Positions 3,219-61,950 of a stretch of 64,000 nt of DNA are shown in pieces. The notes under the pieces were generated by a model. That model did no database searches. It was given only the letters and a program-made list of their open reading frames with translations, and was not told where the DNA came from. Source of the stretch: Escherichia phage C6. Each line of letters starts with the position of its first letter. Positions within the stretch are counted from its first letter, which is position 1. The translations under genes and the position numbers were made by a program. The stretch is taken from the sequence record MW679410.1, one strand, 5' to 3'.

Positions 3219-3295
3219 AACAATTCTCTCGTTGAGTTGGTAAAACCCATCTTAACATAGAATTTTTAACTTGTAAACAGGAATTTTGTACTTTA

Positions 3296-15032: not shown

Positions 15033-15089
15033 AATGTTCTCCTCATGTTTGTGTAAGGTAATAGTACCACATCCTTGTGGTGTTGTAAA

Positions 15090-17213
15090 CTACATTTTGA
15101 ATTTATTTGGCAGAGCAGAGATATCCAAAGATGCAGCAAGGATTTCCATAGCTTCGTTGCTTTCAGAAACGGATTCATTAACCAAGAATTGACTGAATCC
15201 ATGCATCAGGCGAACTTCACCAGTTTCCATCAAATGGTCGCCATCGTAAACAGATTCGCTGAGCTCTGAAGGAGGTGTTACTGTAGCTTCCATAAGATAT
15301 TTGTGAGATACCCTATCATTCATAGCAAAAGCCGCTACTTTATCAACCTTCAACAATAATCCACGCGGAAGGATAATTTCTGCTTCTTCGGCATATTCTG
15401 TAAGGTCACCAGGAGCGATAACTTTAACTGCTTCAGCACCTCGAATAACCATACCAATTTCAGCAATTCTATCCGCAGGACCTTCAGGTGCAATTGGATT
15501 ACCAAACTCGTCTTCTTCCCATTCTACCTCTTCGTCATCGACTTCACCCACATCAGATGAACTACCACTAGCCAATTTAAACAACTCATCAGCGGAGGAT
15601 AAAGAACCTTCACCACCAACAAAAACGGCTTGGTTGTCGAGGGCCATATAATTTTTACCAAATTCACCAAAGATGTTAGGCTTTAATGAGGCTGACACAA
15701 AGTTCTTAAAGTAAAATGTTTTGTTATCGATATTATGACGCAGAATTTTGTATGGCAAATCCTGACCACGATACAAAATAGTACCCTTAGGAAGTTTAAT
15801 ACCCTTAGTAAATGCTGAGTCTAAATCCTTAATCAATTTAATAGCCGTTGTATTGTTTTCGGATTCAGGTTTACCTAAAAGGAACAAGTTCATAGGAGCA
15901 TATTCAGCTGCGCAATATTCAATAATAGCATTGCTTTCGTCTTTGGTTAGGTCCTTAGGTTTAATGAGCTCACCTGAATAAGCATATGCATCACTAATAG
16001 AATCGTTAATTAGTTTATAAACGGCTTCCATAGCGAAAGCAATTCGAGAGGCCTTTTCTGAAGGGGAGCCTTTAAAACGGGTACTCAGGTTATTAACAAT
16101 TTTCTTAATAATATCCAGACTATTGGTTGTATTGATTTGCGAAAGACCGCTTAAAAGTCTATCGACTTCTGTATTAAAAAATGCCATATTATTAGAGTAA
16201 ATTTCAAACCCTTGTTTATCTCTATTAGCATAATTTAGTTTAAATTTACTATCAGTCATTAAAGCGTGCGTGAGAGCAATGGTGTATCTAAAGTTGGCAA
16301 GGTCCTCGCTCTTAGATTTAAACTGAGAAGCCTGGCGCATTTTGGTAATAGCACCTTTTTTAAAGTTCTGACTAATCTGTTCAATACCTTCATTCTCAGG
16401 GCCTTCAGCCGTGTGAACCGGTACAGAAGCTTCAAACTCGTTATAAACCTGCAATTCTTTAGGGGACAAAGTTTCAGGCTCAGCAGTAGAATACTGCGCG
16501 GCTGCTGCCATACGACGCGAAATCTTAGTACGAGTAATGACAGCCTTATCAGTACGTTTTTCTTCAACTTGTGCAATAGATGCCGCTACGGCTTCGACCT
16601 TACTTACGGCCTGGCCGGTTTTCTTAGAAACATACACTTCGCCAACTTTAGACTCAACTTTAGTATAAAGATCGGCATTAATTTCAGGCATACCCTTGAT
16701 ATCTTCAATATTAGCCCCGCGACGTACTAAAAGAACGTAGGTATGTTTTCCGCTGAATTGGAACATGTCGTCAACAACTTTAAACTTACCACCGGTACGG
16801 GCCATAGCCAAACGAGCTAATACGCGCTGAACGGTAGGGCCTTTACCTTTCATTTTCTTAGTAGGGAAACGGAATAAAACCGCGTCCATTTTAAGTTTGT
16901 TTATTTGTTCATATATGGTATCGAAAATGGTGTTCAGTGTACCGAGTGGATCGGTACCCAAACCACCCTTGAGTTCTGCCGGAGCGCCTTTAGCAGATAA
17001 ACTCATTAAGATAACATGGACGTACTTATCGCCCGCCTTAACCATCTTAATAGCGTCGCCTTCAGACGCATAAGATACCATACGTGCTACTAAATTGTCA
17101 TTACCAGGAGCATGTACCGCAAAAATCTGCGGTACGCCTGAGCCAGGTTTAAGATTTGTTACTGGGTAATTTTTTTTATCACTTTTATCAAAAACTTCGT
17201 TTAAATTTTCCAT
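15090..17213 (-). CDS. Alt-like ADP-ribosyltransferase paralog 1 (divergent middle region)
   Basis: 707 aa; N-terminal ~230 aa near-identical to paralogs 2 and 3 and similar to T4 Alt; C-terminal YRGQ / FVSASL / EAEIILPRG motifs; poly-acidic insert. Confidence 0.85.
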   Translation of the reverse strand: MENLNEVFDKSDKKNYPVTNLKPGSGVPQIFAVHAPGNDNLVARMVSYASEGDAIKMVKAGDKYVHVILMSLSAKGAPAELKGGLGTDPLGTLNTIFDTIYEQINKLKMDAVLFRFPTKKMKGKGPTVQRVLARLAMARTGGKFKVVDDMFQFSGKHTYVLLVRRGANIEDIKGMPEINADLYTKVESKVGEVYVSKKTGQAVSKVEAVAASIAQVEEKRTDKAVITRTKISRRMAAAAQYSTAEPETLSPKELQVYNEFEASVPVHTAEGPENEGIEQISQNFKKGAITKMRQASQFKSKSEDLANFRYTIALTHALMTDSKFKLNYANRDKQGFEIYSNNMAFFNTEVDRLLSGLSQINTTNSLDIIKKIVNNLSTRFKGSPSEKASRIAFAMEAVYKLINDSISDAYAYSGELIKPKDLTKDESNAIIEYCAAEYAPMNLFLLGKPESENNTTAIKLIKDLDSAFTKGIKLPKGTILYRGQDLPYKILRHNIDNKTFYFKNFVSASLKPNIFGEFGKNYMALDNQAVFVGGEGSLSSADELFKLASGSSSDVGEVDDEEVEWEEDEFGNPIAPEGPADRIAEIGMVIRGAEAVKVIAPGDLTEYAEEAEIILPRGLLLKVDKVAAFAMNDRVSHKYLMEATVTPPSELSESVYDGDHLMETGEVRLMHGFSQFLVNESVSESNEAMEILAASLDISALPNKFKM

Positions 17214-25192: not shown

Positions 25193-25558
25193 TTAGATAT
25201 CGAATTCGTTCAGAACTACATCAAAGATTGCTTCCAGGTGTTCAGGTTTAGCTCTGTTGCTCAGGATGTGTCGAATCCAAGTTTTAACCAGAAGCTTACG
25301 ATTAACACCGTTCCAGCAAGGATGGGTACCTAAATCACGTTGACGGAAATCATCATCTAAAGCGATTTTAAAAGTAGAACCTTCCATTGTGATTGAAACC
25401 GTAATACCATTTTCAAAGCGCATATAAACGTAGTTAGGAGTCATGCACTGCTCGATTTCGCACACCGTGCCGTTGTTGTGTTTCCACAGGCAAATAACTT
25501 CAGAAGAACCAGCGATACCGTTAGAAACATATTTACGTTCGAAGTTGATGTAGTTCAT
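25193..25558 (-). CDS. hypothetical protein
   Basis: 121-aa track ORF; 5'UTR belongs to a duplicated promoter/leader cassette. Confidence 0.5.
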   Translation of the reverse strand: MNYINFERKYVSNGIAGSSEVICLWKHNNGTVCEIEQCMTPNYVYMRFENGITVSITMEGSTFKIALDDDFRQRDLGTHPCWNGVNRKLLVKTWIRHILSNRAKPEHLEAIFDVVLNEFDI

Positions 25559-25593
25559 TTTATTCTCCAGTTTGTTTTCGTATTATTTGGTAC

Positions 25594-25630
25594 AGGTCTA
25601 TAATAACACAACCTGTACCAAAGTAAACTG
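25594..25630 (-). promoter_or_regulatory. early-type promoter (GTTTAC-N18-TATTAT)
   Basis: Motif family member upstream of ORF 25193..25558. Confidence 0.5.
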
Positions 25631-25632
25631 TT

Positions 25633-26001
25633 TTATGCAACTTTAATCCAATTATCTAAATTTAATTCACCTTTGGCTTTCATTTTTTCAATCAAATCGT
25701 CAGCAGTAGTGCGACCATTTTGATACCATGTAACATCTTCAGAATAACCAGTTTCTTCATCTTCATAGGTCTTACAACGAATCTTACCGATTATGATGGT
25801 TTTCAGTTCGTAGGTATCACCGGTAAAAAAGTTTGTTACCATAATTTTCCAAGAGAAGTCATCAGAAGGACCTTCCGGAGTCATGCAACCTACAAATTCA
25901 AATTGTTCTTTGTACAAGCGCCATTGCATTTCTTTAGTTTCGATTGCTTTGTAACCGTCGTGGTCTTTACATTTGATATATGAGTTAAGATTGATTTTCA
26001 T
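25633..26001 (-). CDS. hypothetical protein
   Basis: 122-aa track ORF; same 5'UTR cassette as the ORF at 25193..25558. Confidence 0.5.
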   Translation of the reverse strand: MKINLNSYIKCKDHDGYKAIETKEMQWRLYKEQFEFVGCMTPEGPSDDFSWKIMVTNFFTGDTYELKTIIIGKIRCKTYEDEETGYSEDVTWYQNGRTTADDLIEKMKAKGELNLDNWIKVA

Positions 26002-26039
26002 TTTATTCTCCAGTTTGTTTTCGTATTATTTGGTACATG

Positions 26040-26072
26040 TCTATAGTATCATGCCTACTAGAGATGTACATA
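26040..26072 (-). promoter_or_regulatory. early-type promoter variant (ATGTAC -35, TACTAT -10)
   Basis: Second copy of the duplicated cassette, with a degenerate -35. Confidence 0.4.
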
Positions 26073-26113: not shown

Positions 26114-26470
26114 TTACTTAATGATGATACGAGGATTAAGCTCTGCCGTGTAGTAATTTACAGCCTTAGTAACTATAGCTTCACCTTTAGGATTTGCCAG
26201 AACCCATTCACGGGCTCGTTTGTGAGCTTCTAATTCAGTCAATAATCCGGACCTTTGACACCCTCTGTCTTGGGTACCTGCTTCTGTTAAAAAAGCAACT
26301 AGGTAGATCGCGTTTTCATAAGGCGTGGCGGGCGGTACGTATACAGGCGGGCTTGGCGGGTTATATGCCGCGGGATGATGTGCCGGAATTCCATCATACG
26401 GCCCTGTACCTGGCACCGCGTAAGAGGCGCCGCGAGGAGAAGTAAATGTATGATTATATCTATCGTTCAT
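26114..26470 (-). CDS. hypothetical proline-rich protein
   Basis: 118 aa; N-terminal proline-rich tract (GIPAHHPAAYNPPSPPVYVPPATPY) then a globular C-terminal part. Confidence 0.5.
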   Translation of the reverse strand: MNDRYNHTFTSPRGASYAVPGTGPYDGIPAHHPAAYNPPSPPVYVPPATPYENAIYLVAFLTEAGTQDRGCQRSGLLTELEAHKRAREWVLANPKGEAIVTKAVNYYTAELNPRIIIK

Positions 26471-26828: not shown

Positions 26829-26857
26829 ATAGTACAAAATACATTCAAGAGGTACAC
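26829..26857 (-). promoter_or_regulatory. early-type promoter (GTGTAC-N17-TACTAT) inside a 260-nt ORF-free region
   Basis: Correct spacing; would give about a 145-nt leader ahead of ORF 26512..26673. Confidence 0.4.
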
Positions 26858-27651: not shown

Positions 27652-27709
27652 ATTTAATCCATATTGTTTTGTTGATAGATTAATAATAACACGCTATTCT
27701 TAAAGCATA

Positions 27710-29908: not shown

Positions 29909-29976
29909 TTCGATTTCCTCATTTGTTTCGGTAAGGTCATCATATCACCGTCCTTGGTGAAAGTAAACACCTTTTT

Positions 29977-32351: not shown

Positions 32352-32518
32352 AATAATTTCCTCAAATTTTATAATCCGTAGGAGCATTATACTCTGCTCC
32401 CAAGAGTTTGTAAACTACTTTCCAAAAAGACCATGCATACACATGCTGAACACAATCCCAAAACAAAAGAATGCAGCGCCAAATCTAACGGCATCCCAAC
32501 CGCAAACACATGTCTCAA

Positions 32519-33647: not shown

Positions 33648-33673
33648 TTTGTTTTTCTCCTCATTAGTTGGTA

Positions 33674-33708
33674 AGTCTATACTAACACATCATGAGGAGA
33701 TGTAAACT
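33674..33708 (-). promoter_or_regulatory. early-type promoter (GTTTAC-N17-TAGTAT) overlapping rnlA 3' end
   Basis: Motif family member upstream of ORF 33147..33647. Confidence 0.5.
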
Positions 33709-40934: not shown

Positions 40935-40954
40935 TTTATTCTCCTTAGTTGACA

Positions 40955-40990
40955 AGGCTATAGTATCACTACCATAGCCTGGTGTAAACT
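40955..40990 (-). promoter_or_regulatory. early-type promoter (GTTTAC-N18-TACTAT)
   Basis: Motif family member upstream of ORF 40695..40934. Confidence 0.5.
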
Positions 40991-41217: not shown

Positions 41218-41240
41218 TTTATTTTCCTCACTCATTAGTT

Positions 41241-41279
41241 GATAGGTCTATAGTATCATGTTTAAAGCAGATGTAAACA
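41241..41279 (-). promoter_or_regulatory. early-type promoter (GTTTAC-N17-TACTAT-AGACCTATCAAC)
   Basis: Canonical member of the motif family. Confidence 0.55.
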
Positions 41280-41944: not shown

Positions 41945-41984
41945 TTGATAAGTCTATAGTATCATGTTTAAAGGCATTGTAAAC
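41945..41984 (-). promoter_or_regulatory. early-type promoter
   Basis: Motif family member GTTTAC...TACTATAGACTTATCAAC. Confidence 0.5.
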
Positions 41985-45192: not shown

Positions 45193-45259
45193 ATGAACCT
45201 CTGTCCAATTAGTGTAGAGGTTCATTATATCATGACCCTAGAAGAAGTAAACACTTTGC

Positions 45260-55770: not shown

Positions 55771-55802
55771 AATATTCTCTTCAATTCAGTACGTCATTAT
55801 CT

Positions 55803-55841
55803 GATAGGGCTATACTAACATATCCTTAGGGATTGTAAACA
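55803..55841 (-). promoter_or_regulatory. early-type promoter (GTTTAC-N17-TAGTAT) for asiA
   Basis: Motif family member about 35 nt upstream of asiA. Confidence 0.55.
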
Positions 55842-57168: not shown

Positions 57169-57801
57169 TCAGATTGCGTTGGTTACGGTTTTGATAACTT
57201 CAGATGATACGTTTTGGAAGTCGATATAAGTATTCTTACCACCGGTCTTAATCTTAACATCAAGATTCAAGGAAGTAAACACTTGTTTTTCTTTATCAGT
57301 CATATTATAACCGAAGATACGCATCATGCCATCACGGCGGACTTCAATTTGACGAATACCATTGGTACGTTTGGCGAATCGAACTTCAAGGTTGCTACGG
57401 TTTTCAGCAATTTCACGAATCTCGATACGGTCTTCTAATAAAGCTTTAACTTCATCAGCCAGTGTTACCATTTCAGGAGTAACACCACGTGAACTGCGTG
57501 TTTTACGTTTTTCCAACATCTCTGGGGCATTTTCAGAAGCGAACAGGTCGGCAGCTTTTTGAACTAAGTCCATTGCTTCACCTGTAGCCACTAAACCGTC
57601 GCCAGATTTTTCGATGAATCCTTTCTTAATCAATACACCGATGTTAGAGTTAACTACCGCAGCACTAAATTGCTCACTCAGGGCTTCACGGACTTCGCCT
57701 GAAGTGATGAAGTTATGCTTGATGATATGTACTAAGATCGAAGCAGTTTTTTCATTCAGGGCGTCTTCAGAAGCTTTGATGATATAAGTAATTTTAGACA
57801 T
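57169..57801 (-). CDS. motA: middle-transcription activator MotA
   Basis: 210 aa; MSKITYIIKAS...NSNIGVLIKKGFIEKSGDGL... matches T4 MotA. Confidence 0.95.
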   Translation of the reverse strand: MSKITYIIKASEDALNEKTASILVHIIKHNFITSGEVREALSEQFSAAVVNSNIGVLIKKGFIEKSGDGLVATGEAMDLVQKAADLFASENAPEMLEKRKTRSSRGVTPEMVTLADEVKALLEDRIEIREIAENRSNLEVRFAKRTNGIRQIEVRRDGMMRIFGYNMTDKEKQVFTSLNLDVKIKTGGKNTYIDFQNVSSEVIKTVTNAI

Positions 57802-57826
57802 TTTAATCTCCGATAACCATTTATTT

Positions 57827-57865
57827 GATAGGTCTATAATAACACGTTTAAAGCAGAAGTAAACT
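57827..57865 (-). promoter_or_regulatory. early-type promoter for motA
   Basis: GTTTAC-N17-TATTAT-AGACCTATCAA upstream of motA. Confidence 0.55.
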
Positions 57866-57905: not shown

Positions 57906-58121
57906 TTAGATTGATAGGTCTTTAATCTCGGCGATTAAAGCAGCTTTTCCTTCACGAAGTTTTTCCAGTTCACGACCATTAGAACCGCGAACCACTAAGG
58001 AATTTATCTCCACTTCTAACCAATTCAGTTTTTCAACTAGTTCTTTACGTTTAGCATTCATGCCAGGTTTAACTTTACCGAAACGGGTTGTAGCGTTTTG
58101 GGTATTTTTCATCTTGTTCAT
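57906..58121 (-). CDS. hypothetical protein
   Basis: Track ORF begins at GTG; ATG (MNKMKNTQ...) after GGAGA. Confidence 0.45.
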   Translation of the reverse strand: MNKMKNTQNATTRFGKVKPGMNAKRKELVEKLNWLEVEINSLVVRGSNGRELEKLREGKAALIAEIKDLSI

Positions 58122-58150
58122 TTTGTATCTCCATTTCACTCTATTGTTTT

Positions 58151-58189
58151 GATAGGTCTATAGTATCATGTTTAAAGCAGAAGTAAACA
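58151..58189 (-). promoter_or_regulatory. early-type promoter
   Basis: Same 40-nt core as the promoter at 41241..41279. Confidence 0.55.
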
Positions 58190-60712: not shown

Positions 60713-60789
60713 ATCAATTTCCTCAGTAGATTAATGTTTTGTTATCCAGTCAACGAGAACCATTATAACATGATTCTCGAGGTTGTAAA

Positions 60790-61134
60790 CTATTTTTGTA
60801 GCTGTTCCAAAATAAATCCGCTCGTATAAAAGGAAGCATTATAAACCTTGTTCAGTGGGTCCAAAGCGCGTCCGTAAGTATCACGTAGTTCTTTGATAAC
60901 GTTTTCATAACTCACGTAGTAAGCACTATGATAACCAGGGTCCATGCTCATACGGAATTTGATGAATCGATAAAAACCTGTATCCGGGTCTTGAACGAAA
61001 ACGAAATCAGCACTCGTCATAATTTTTGAATCTACGCCAGGAATCATACTTTGATTGAATGCCACCGATGCATCCTGAAGGCTGAGTTGTTTAAAGAACA
61101 TTACCTTAGCATTACCAAAAAAGATTTTAGACAT
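60790..61134 (-). CDS. hypothetical protein (ndd.x position)
   Basis: Track ORF 60790..61158; probable start MSKIFFGN... Confidence 0.45.
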   Translation of the reverse strand: MSKIFFGNAKVMFFKQLSLQDASVAFNQSMIPGVDSKIMTSADFVFVQDPDTGFYRFIKFRMSMDPGYHSAYYVSYENVIKELRDTYGRALDPLNKVYNASFYTSGFILEQLQK

Positions 61135-61478: not shown

Positions 61479-61495
61479 AATCATCTCCATTAGTT

Positions 61496-61534
61496 GATAG
61501 GTCTATAATATCATGATTAATGGAGATGTATACT
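61496..61534 (-). promoter_or_regulatory. early-type promoter variant (GTATAC -35)
   Basis: Motif family member with TATTAT -10 and AGACCTATCAAC box. Confidence 0.45.
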
Positions 61535-61890: not shown

Positions 61891-61911
61891 TTTGTTCTCC
61901 TCATTAGTTGA

Positions 61912-61950
61912 TAGGAAGATAGTAACGCCATCCATGGTATATGTAAACAC
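61912..61950 (-). promoter_or_regulatory. early-type promoter (GTTTAC-N18-TACTAT)
   Basis: Motif family member upstream of ORF 61624..61890. Confidence 0.45.

Follow-up and report, generated by a model that had tools for sequence, protein, structure and literature searches.

T4-type early promoters carrying a conserved box at the predicted transcription start in Escherichia phage C6

Early promoters of the window and their 11-nt box

The stretch analyzed here (hereafter, the window) comprises 64,000 nucleotides of Escherichia phage C6 (MW679410.1) and extends, as judged by collinearity with JS98, approximately from gene 23/24 to the denB/rIIB end. Its segment 40000-44000 matches Dhakavirus, i.e., the JS98/JS10/IME08 group of T4-like coliphages, over the full length at 93-96% identity. 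The index element is localized in the gene 32-frd region, where the genes lie on the minus strand and were named by homology to JS10, JS98, and IME08. It occupies positions 41239-41278 of the minus strand upstream of an frd.3-like ORF and reads GTTTAC-ATCTGCTTTAAACATGA-TACTAT-AGACCTATCAA-CTAATGAG..ATG, that is, a -35 hexamer GTTTAC (41278-41273), a TG-extended -10 hexamer TACTAT (41255-41250), and an exact copy of the 11-nt box AGACCTATCAA (41249-41239), with the predicted +1 at 41243 (all on the minus strand). The -35 hexamer is preceded by the A-rich tract aaaattcaaaaataagt and by the stop codon of the upstream ORF, situated at a distance of 2 nt, while downstream the box is followed by CTAATGAGTGAGGAAAATAAA and then the ATG.

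Promoter positions are numbered by the T4 convention, in which the -10 hexamer occupies -12 to -7, as given in PMC9161530 (citing Miller 2003) and likewise followed in PMC1524935. All +1 positions in the window were predicted from this convention. On this scale the box, AGACCT followed by ATCAA, would span -6 to +5, taking in the discriminator, the start site, and the beginning of the transcript, with the predicted transcription start at the A of ATCAA and T at -1.

The pattern GTTTAC-N17/18-TAnnAT has 17 exact matches in the window, all of them on the minus strand, compared to 0.48 expected; one match, at 57280, falls within the motA coding region. The box itself occurs in six exact copies and three copies with one mismatch. 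These nine matches are again all on the minus strand, compared to 1.36 expected, and none of 100 shuffles reached nine. The family of at least twelve near-identical promoters reported in the preliminary description is thus real, but its near-identity was overstated, as five promoters have the exact box, one has a single mismatch, and six have between two and five. Nor is the box strictly conserved, given these six diverged copies and six other GTTTAC promoters that have no box at all. The elements listed at that stage are genuine, with the exception of the one at 26829, a weak promoter-like match between 30.9-like and rIII-like ORFs from which the box is absent.

Below, promoters are denoted by the start of the -35 hexamer, and all are on the minus strand. 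The exact box is found in promoters 533, 41278, 57864, 58188, and 61533. Promoter 533 (493-533; predicted +1 at 497) has an 18-nt spacer and the leader ATCAAAACATGAGGAGATTAAAA-ATG and is located upstream of an ORF similar to JS98 orf173. In its ortholog in JS98 (approximately 106132-106161; L004 6332-6361), the upstream tract, the -10 hexamer, the box, and the leader are conserved; the 18-nt spacers of the pair, ACACAAAAAGCGTCGTGT and AGCAAGGTTATCACATGT, are wholly unlike, forming a small replacement patch. Promoter 57864 (57825-57864; -10 TATTAT; predicted +1 at 57829) is located upstream of motA, immediately downstream of a terminator-like hairpin AGAGCTCTTGAAAAAGAGCTC, and coincides with the junction of a 280-bp ORF insertion specific to IME08. 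Promoter 58188 (58149-58188; predicted +1 at 58153) is preceded by the terminator GGAACCTTCGGGTTCC-T6 and followed by an ORF similar to JS98 orf253, and promoter 61533 (61494-61533; -35 GTATAC; predicted +1 at 61498) is followed by an ndd.4-like ORF.

A single mismatch is present in the box AGACTTATCAA of promoter 41984 (41945-41984), which is situated after the gene 32 terminator hairpin and upstream of an frd.2-like ORF. Two mismatches were observed in promoters 33707 (33668-33707; AGACTTACCAA; upstream of alc; JS98 c38073) and 55840 (55801-55840; AGCCCTATCAG), and three in promoters 40989 (40949-40989; AGCCTTGTCAA; upstream of frd.1) and 61948 (61908-61948; CTTCCTATCAA), the latter retaining intact the core CTATCAAC considered below. 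The most diverged copies are those of promoter 25628 (25589-25628; AGACCTGTACC, four mismatches), and promoter 26071 (26032-26071; AGACATGTACC, five mismatches), a variant with the -35 hexamer ATGTAC; these two have the same leader.

The promoters that have GTTTAC and lack the box are 60790 (60751-60790; upstream of ndd), 45252 (45213-45252; upstream of rnh), and 32415 (32375-32415), all with the -10 hexamer TATAAT, as well as 29968 (29928-29968; TATGAT), 15090 (15050-15090; TACTAT TACCTTACACA; upstream of alt.-3), and 3278 (3238-3278; TAAGAT). Promoter 32415 has near-identical counterparts in T4, where the cassette precedes motB, and in JS98, at sites that are not orthologous. Since the box is missing from six of the 18 promoters of the window, including every promoter with a TATAAT -10, it is not required for an early promoter.

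One exact copy of the box, at 57911-57921 of the minus strand, has no promoter before it and forms part of the 3'-terminal codons of an ORF (..IKDLSI*); the same is seen in IME08 (L006, near 39183). The sequence before it is CTGCTTTAA, which recurs within the spacer of the neighboring promoters. A decayed promoter cassette may have left this copy behind, or an old recombination joint may have been absorbed into the coding region.

Cassette architecture, leaders, and hairpins

The common architecture comprises an A-rich upstream tract resembling an UP element near -42, the -35 hexamer GTTTAC, a 17/18-bp spacer, often with TG at -15/-14, and a -10 hexamer of the form TAnnAT. All copies are on the early-gene (minus) strand, directly upstream of co-oriented ORFs. 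The preliminary assignment to T4-type early promoters is borne out by these features together with synteny with T4. A Shine-Dalgarno sequence, in most window cassettes containing GGAG, and the ATG follow the box, and as the leaders are only 19-35 nt long, the transcribed half of the box abuts the Shine-Dalgarno sequence. Overall, a cassette consisting of the promoter, a very short 5' leader, and the ribosome-binding site spans about 85 nt.

Two classes of promoters can be distinguished. Copies of the box type have the -10 hexamer TACTAT or TATTAT and TG at -15/-14, and folding of the region from -35 to +8 in promoters 41278, 41984, 58188, 57864, 61533, and 533 yielded no significant structure (z from -0.6 to +1.1). 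The second class has TATAAT or another -10 hexamer and an inverted repeat around it, so that the -10 comes to lie in the loop of a hairpin (25628, 32415, 40989, and 60790; z from -4.1 to -5.9). Thus, in promoter 40989, the spacer segment AGGCTATGGTA pairs with TACTATAGCCT to form a hairpin across the -10 (-16.1 kcal/mol, z = -5.0), and the -10 is likewise spanned by the arms GGTACAGGT/ACCTGTACC in promoter 25628 (-18.1 kcal/mol, z = -5.9), CGAGAATCAT/ATGGTTCTCG in promoter 60790 (z = -4.6), and GGGAGC/GCTCC in promoter 32415 (z = -4.1). The stems vary by compensatory changes, e.g., GGGACC/GGTCCC in T4 and JS98 versus GGGAGC/GCTCC in the window or, in a further pair among copies and genomes, GGTCTAT../..ATAGACC versus AGGCTAT../..ATAGCCT. 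Such hairpins could terminate read-through transcripts or occlude the promoter. Terminator hairpins are situated upstream of promoters 57864, 58188, 41984, 26071, and 3278, and other copies adjoin the stop codon of the upstream gene. A search of the whole window against Rfam produced no matches.

The box in JS98, T4, and other phages

The complete genome of JS98 contains 40 matches to the promoter pattern, 39 of them on the minus strand, compared to approximately 1.6 expected. Their alignment yields the consensus AAAAAnnnGTTTACATnCnnCnnnnnnCATGnTACTATAGnCCTATCAACTAAnnGAGA, in short form ..CATGnTACTATAGnCCTATCAACTAA..GAGA, with AAAAAnnn upstream of the -35 hexamer; the extended -10 is represented by T at -15 in 31 of 39 promoters and by G at -14 in 32 of 39. 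In the early regions of T4, 34 matches were found, all on the minus strand, with the consensus TACTATAnAnCTATCAAnTA..GGAG..ATG, in which the -10 and the following positions read TACTAT A n A n C T A T C A A n T A. In both phages, the information content is elevated approximately from -3 to +8, most clearly from -3 to +3, and is close to zero over most of the spacer.

For position-specific counts we retained 34 JS98 and 30 T4 promoters after removal of intragenic false positives. The box proved to be enriched beyond the window, as AGACCT occupies -6 to -1 in about 13 of the 34 credible JS98 promoters; the corresponding hexamers in T4 are ACAACT (7/30) and TACCCT (3/30). From +1 to +8, the same sequence ATCAACTA is found in 9 of 34 JS98 and 8 of 30 T4 promoters. 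Two parts can be told apart: a core CTATCAAC(TA), with CTATCAAC at -2 to +6, common to JS98 and T4, and lineage-specific positions -6 to -3, which are AGAC in JS98 and ACAA or TACC in T4. The same holds at orthologous loci. Of the 18 promoter loci orthologous between JS98 and T4, which include motA, frd.1, frd.3, ndd.4, rnh, regB, and denV and to which the window copies map, those at nrdC.8, e.8, frd.3, motA, and ndd.4 have AGAC in JS98 and ACAA/TACC in T4, along with the same core. Matches to the promoter pattern in T4 are syntenic with the window copies upstream of motA, frd.1/frd.3, alc, ndd.4, and rnh.

The T4 early promoters are the closest known system. They share with the family described here the GTTTAC -35 hexamer, the 17/18-bp spacer with TG, the TAnnAT -10, the A-rich tract, the orientation, the syntenic positions, and the downstream conservation, with C T before the start and A T C A A C T A from it. 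They differ in that the JS98 type combines a 17-bp spacer, CATGATACTAT, and AGAC at -6 to -3, whereas the dominant T4 subtype has an 18-bp spacer, GTGGTACTAT, and ACAA or TACC at these positions; in addition, the JS98 group has the box more often and in a less variable form. The impression given initially that the box is unusual is not supported, as the same downstream conservation is seen in T4, for whose early promoters "additional regions of consensus" have been described in reviews (PMC2988021). The finding is thus real but ordinary, because T4 itself conserves the same start-site and leader region. Judging by these sequence comparisons, the box is the JS98-lineage version of a T-even early-promoter feature and is not peculiar to Escherichia phage C6.

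One T4 promoter, the one that precedes denV (NC_000866, approximately 65385-65413; L008 15485-15513), has AGACCTATCAACTACAGGAG in identical form. It is of the JS98 type, with a 17-nt spacer and CATGATACTATAGACCTATCAACTACAGGAG, and is nearly identical to the denV promoter of JS98, while almost all other T4 early promoters are unlike it. This suggests either that an ancestral type was retained at denV or that the denV module was laterally exchanged.

A BLAST search with the -10, box, and leader matched 1047 phage records. With this JS98-type query, the number of places per genome was 18-19 in Dhakavirus, approximately 8-10 in some other T-even genera, and 1-3 in T4. An exact-match scan of IMG/VR for the 15-mer TATAGACCTATCAAC yielded more than 120 loci, mostly single matches, as chance predicts for a collection of this size; multiple matches were confined to T4-like genomes of about 170 kb. 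A single copy, ATTTAC-N17-TACTATAGTCCTATCAACTAAATGAG, was found in Acinetobacter phage Berthold (L010 1484-1541), a T4-like phage from another subfamily, where it precedes a small ORF and a gene for an HNH endonuclease; it may be a mobile cassette that was horizontally transferred.

The first 30 kb of RB69 contain seven promoters that are heterogeneous downstream of the -10, e.g., CTTTCT before ATCAACTA, AGGCTT before ATCTTTAA, and AACCCA before TATCAACC. The core is far less uniform here, with no more than a tendency to C/T-T before the start and A-T-C from it, and hence a general requirement of RNA polymerase for the core appears to be weak. This heterogeneity fits the remark that C is preferred at -3 to -1 in the early promoters of RB69, RB49, and 44RR (PMC1524935).

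Middle promoters provide a further comparison. MotA-dependent middle promoters were defined by the sequence (a/t)(a/t)TGCTT(t/c)A located 11-13 bp upstream of the -10. The candidates with a correctly spaced MotA box in the window, JS98, and T4 mostly have neither the box nor the core, the core being present in one or two of them. The core was therefore rejected as a general feature of phage start sites, and the box is not a general start-site requirement. One MotA-type candidate, at 27671-27708 of the window (minus strand), has the structure ATGCTTTA-N12-TATTAT followed by TAATCTATCAAC, and thus carries the early-promoter core. Separately, a perfect MotA-box core, TGCTTTA, is present in the spacers of promoters 41278 (41262-41268), 57864 (57848-57854), and 58188 (58172-58178). 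It was rejected as a MotA box, as it is situated 7 nt upstream of TACTAT/TATTAT rather than 11-13, and it may be due to chance or be a remnant of promoter-class exchange.

Recombination among cassettes and conservation of the box

Orthologous promoters of the window and JS98/IME08 differ at 7.8% of positions in the -35/spacer region and 6.8% in the upstream tract, compared to 2.8% in the -10, 4.5% in the box, and 3.1% in the leader; the underlying counts are small (in the box, 15 differences in 330 positions). Within JS98 and within T4, stretches of 20-58 nt are exactly identical, in register, between dispersed copies. They take in the spacer and the upstream tract, and their ends vary between pairs of copies. 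In the window, the adjacent promoters 25628 and 26071 are identical approximately from the -10 through the ATG, save for two mismatches (25558-25605 and 26001-26048, minus strand; TATAGAC..GTACCAAATAATACGAAAACAAACTGGAGAATAAAATGA), whereas their -35/spacer regions are entirely unlike. Tandem gene duplication does not account for the identical leaders, as the downstream ORFs, of 121 and 122 aa, are unrelated.

The clearest rearrangement involves the region upstream of motA. In IME08, a small ORF of about 66 aa (280 bp) is flanked by two copies of GTGTTATTATAGACCTATCAA, comprising the -10 and the box, whereas the window and JS98 have at this site a single chimeric promoter, with the upstream half matching the first IME08 copy and the leader matching the second (IME08 L006 38801-39081 vs. 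window 57824-57844). This ORF was found in only four phages, IME08, IME341, 04086, and AnYang. It is the only box-bounded indel observed; the junctions of other indels in the same comparison are located at terminator hairpins or at the starts of paralogous genes. Together with the varied ends of the exchange tracts, this indicates that the box serves as a patch of homology rather than a dedicated recombination site. The comparisons support the view that the cassettes are homology patches at which recombination has occurred, which preserves part of the original suggestion of a recombination signal; no evidence of a dedicated site-specific recombination or nuclease site emerged from them.

A similar situation has been described for the PeSL elements of RB49/phi1 (Arbiol et al. 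2010, PMC2839356), cassettes through which shuffling occurs and whose mapped crossovers lie between the -10 and the ATG. Both systems have dispersed conserved early-promoter cassettes flanking small ORFs in gene-dense accessory regions, presence or absence of ORFs bounded by two cassettes (here one clear indel, the 280-bp ORF of IME08), crossovers between the -10 and the ATG, and some copies with a -10 hairpin or with a terminator hairpin just upstream. In contrast to PeSLs, the -35 hexamer in the window is the T4-type GTTTAC, and the box-bearing copies have no stem-loop inside the promoter: the stem-loop is present in promoters 25628, 32415, 40989, and 60790, and no significant one was found in 41278, 533, and 61533. 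The T-even elements were termed analogues, not homologues, of PeSLs by Arbiol et al. (PMC2839356). The family is an already known one, that of the T4 early promoters, with PeSL-like shuffling.

We consider it probable that these elements are sigma-70-dependent early promoters of a T4-like phage, each joined to a very short 5' leader and a ribosome-binding site, in which the box is conserved through the combined action of start-site/leader function and concerted evolution. The excess conservation of the box would be best explained by this combination, given the shared runs of 20-58 nt and the box-bounded ORF of IME08. Firstly, the core C(-2) T(-1) A(+1) T C A A C (T A), present in JS98-type phages, T4, and an Acinetobacter T4-like phage, is probably under functional constraint, as it is common to lineages that are unlike in the spacer, spacer length, and positions -6 to -3 and diverges less than the spacer at orthologous promoters. 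It may fix an A start with a pyrimidine at -1, favor rapid formation of open complexes and escape of the polymerase at these very strong promoters, and supply an unstructured, G-free 5' end right before the Shine-Dalgarno sequence. Secondly, dispersed cassettes would duplicate and exchange sequence via phage homologous recombination, and this exchange would homogenize even positions with no obvious function, as suggested by the lineage-specific positions -6 to -3, the identity of spacers and upstream tracts, and the mosaic patches. Such exchange would also turn the cassettes into breakpoints at which small ORFs are gained or lost. The shares of selection and gene conversion are inseparable on the basis of sequence alone.

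Some strong sigma-70 phage promoters bear a resemblance in their start region, e.g., T7 A1 (AUCGAG from +1) and lambda PL (AUCAGC from +1). The resemblance consists in the pyrimidine at -1 and in a transcript that would begin with A-U-C some 7 nt beyond the -10 hexamer; these promoters differ in being single copies rather than a dispersed family.

A start/5' leader element was among the initial suggestions, and that part stands insofar as both the predicted start and the initial 5-8 nt of the leader fall within the box. A stronger form would place the function at the RNA level, with the 5'-terminal AUCAAC(UA) serving translation initiation, mRNA stability, or processing, e.g., as a context for RegB cleavage at GGAG. 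The short leaders in which the transcribed half of the box directly adjoins a GGAG-containing Shine-Dalgarno sequence agree with such a role, as do the conservation that runs on through CTAA/CTAC-TGAGGAG to the ATG in both JS98 and T4 and the rarity of the box in MotA-type middle promoters. However, the highest information is at -3 to -1, which are not transcribed, and neither an Rfam family nor a stable structure was found for the box-type copies. As the sole explanation we consider an RNA-level role unlikely; as a component, it is compatible with, and plausibly in part contained in, the preferred combination of start-site/leader function and concerted evolution.

Rather less likely still is that the box has no function of its own and owes its identity among copies only to the recent amplification of a single cassette lineage (TGnTACTAT + AGACCTATCAAC + leader), which gene conversion would keep uniform. 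The strict co-occurrence of the box with the TACTAT-type -10 could indeed reflect common descent of one cassette lineage instead of function. Whole cassettes, including spacers, are identical at non-homologous loci, the variants at -6 to -3 are genome-specific at orthologous loci, TATAAT promoters without the box are nevertheless conserved early promoters, and the promoters in the first 30 kb of RB69 are heterogeneous, all of which speaks in its favor. It is difficult to reconcile with it that the core is the same in T4 and JS98 despite unlike spacers, spacer lengths (18 vs. 17), and positions -6 to -3, that it recurs in an Acinetobacter phage of another subfamily, and that the box and leader are less diverged than the spacer at orthologous sites.

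The box might also be an operator for a trans-acting protein, whether one of the host or a phage factor by which early promoters are shut off or modulated. It overlaps +1, an ideal position for a repressor, is specific to early promoters and mostly absent from middle ones, and has lineage-specific positions -6 to -3 that at many loci could reflect co-evolution with a phage factor; the statement that the mechanism of T4 early shut-off is unknown (PMC2988021) was also counted in favor of this possibility. At the same time, no candidate protein was identified, no dyad symmetry of the box is conserved between T4 and JS98, many early promoters have no box, and the homogenized spacers and upstream tracts demonstrate that gene conversion alone explains lineage-specific variants. 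As to host proteins, TATCAACTAATGA is one position off the IHF consensus WATCAANNNNTTR, but this likeness comes from the TGAGG of the Shine-Dalgarno sequence. An operator therefore seems improbable, and the more specific proposal, that the box is the cis-target of T-even early shut-off minutes after infection and that the variants at -6 to -3 result from co-evolution with a phage factor and not from gene conversion, even more so. Finally, a dedicated target of a site-specific recombinase or a nuclease, such as a homing endonuclease, is highly implausible: one indel junction falls exactly in the -10 plus box, and the Acinetobacter copy lies upstream of an HNH endonuclease gene, but this is the only box-bounded indel found, other junctions are elsewhere, and the exchange tracts start and end at varied positions, as predicted for homology-driven exchange.

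The cassettes are of practical use in annotation: they point to early transcription units and to probable 5' ends of mRNAs and flag hotspots of gain and loss of small accessory ORFs. We found no functional dissection of the shared core CTATCAAC (-2 to +6) in the literature searched, and the comparison of lineage-specific and shared positions shows which bases to mutate.

Another ORF of the window, encoding 118 aa (26114-26470) and absent from IME08, is an insertion flanked by two similar terminator hairpins, GGGACTCTTCGGAGTCCC-T5 and GGAACCTTCGGGTTCC-T6; it lacks its own promoter.
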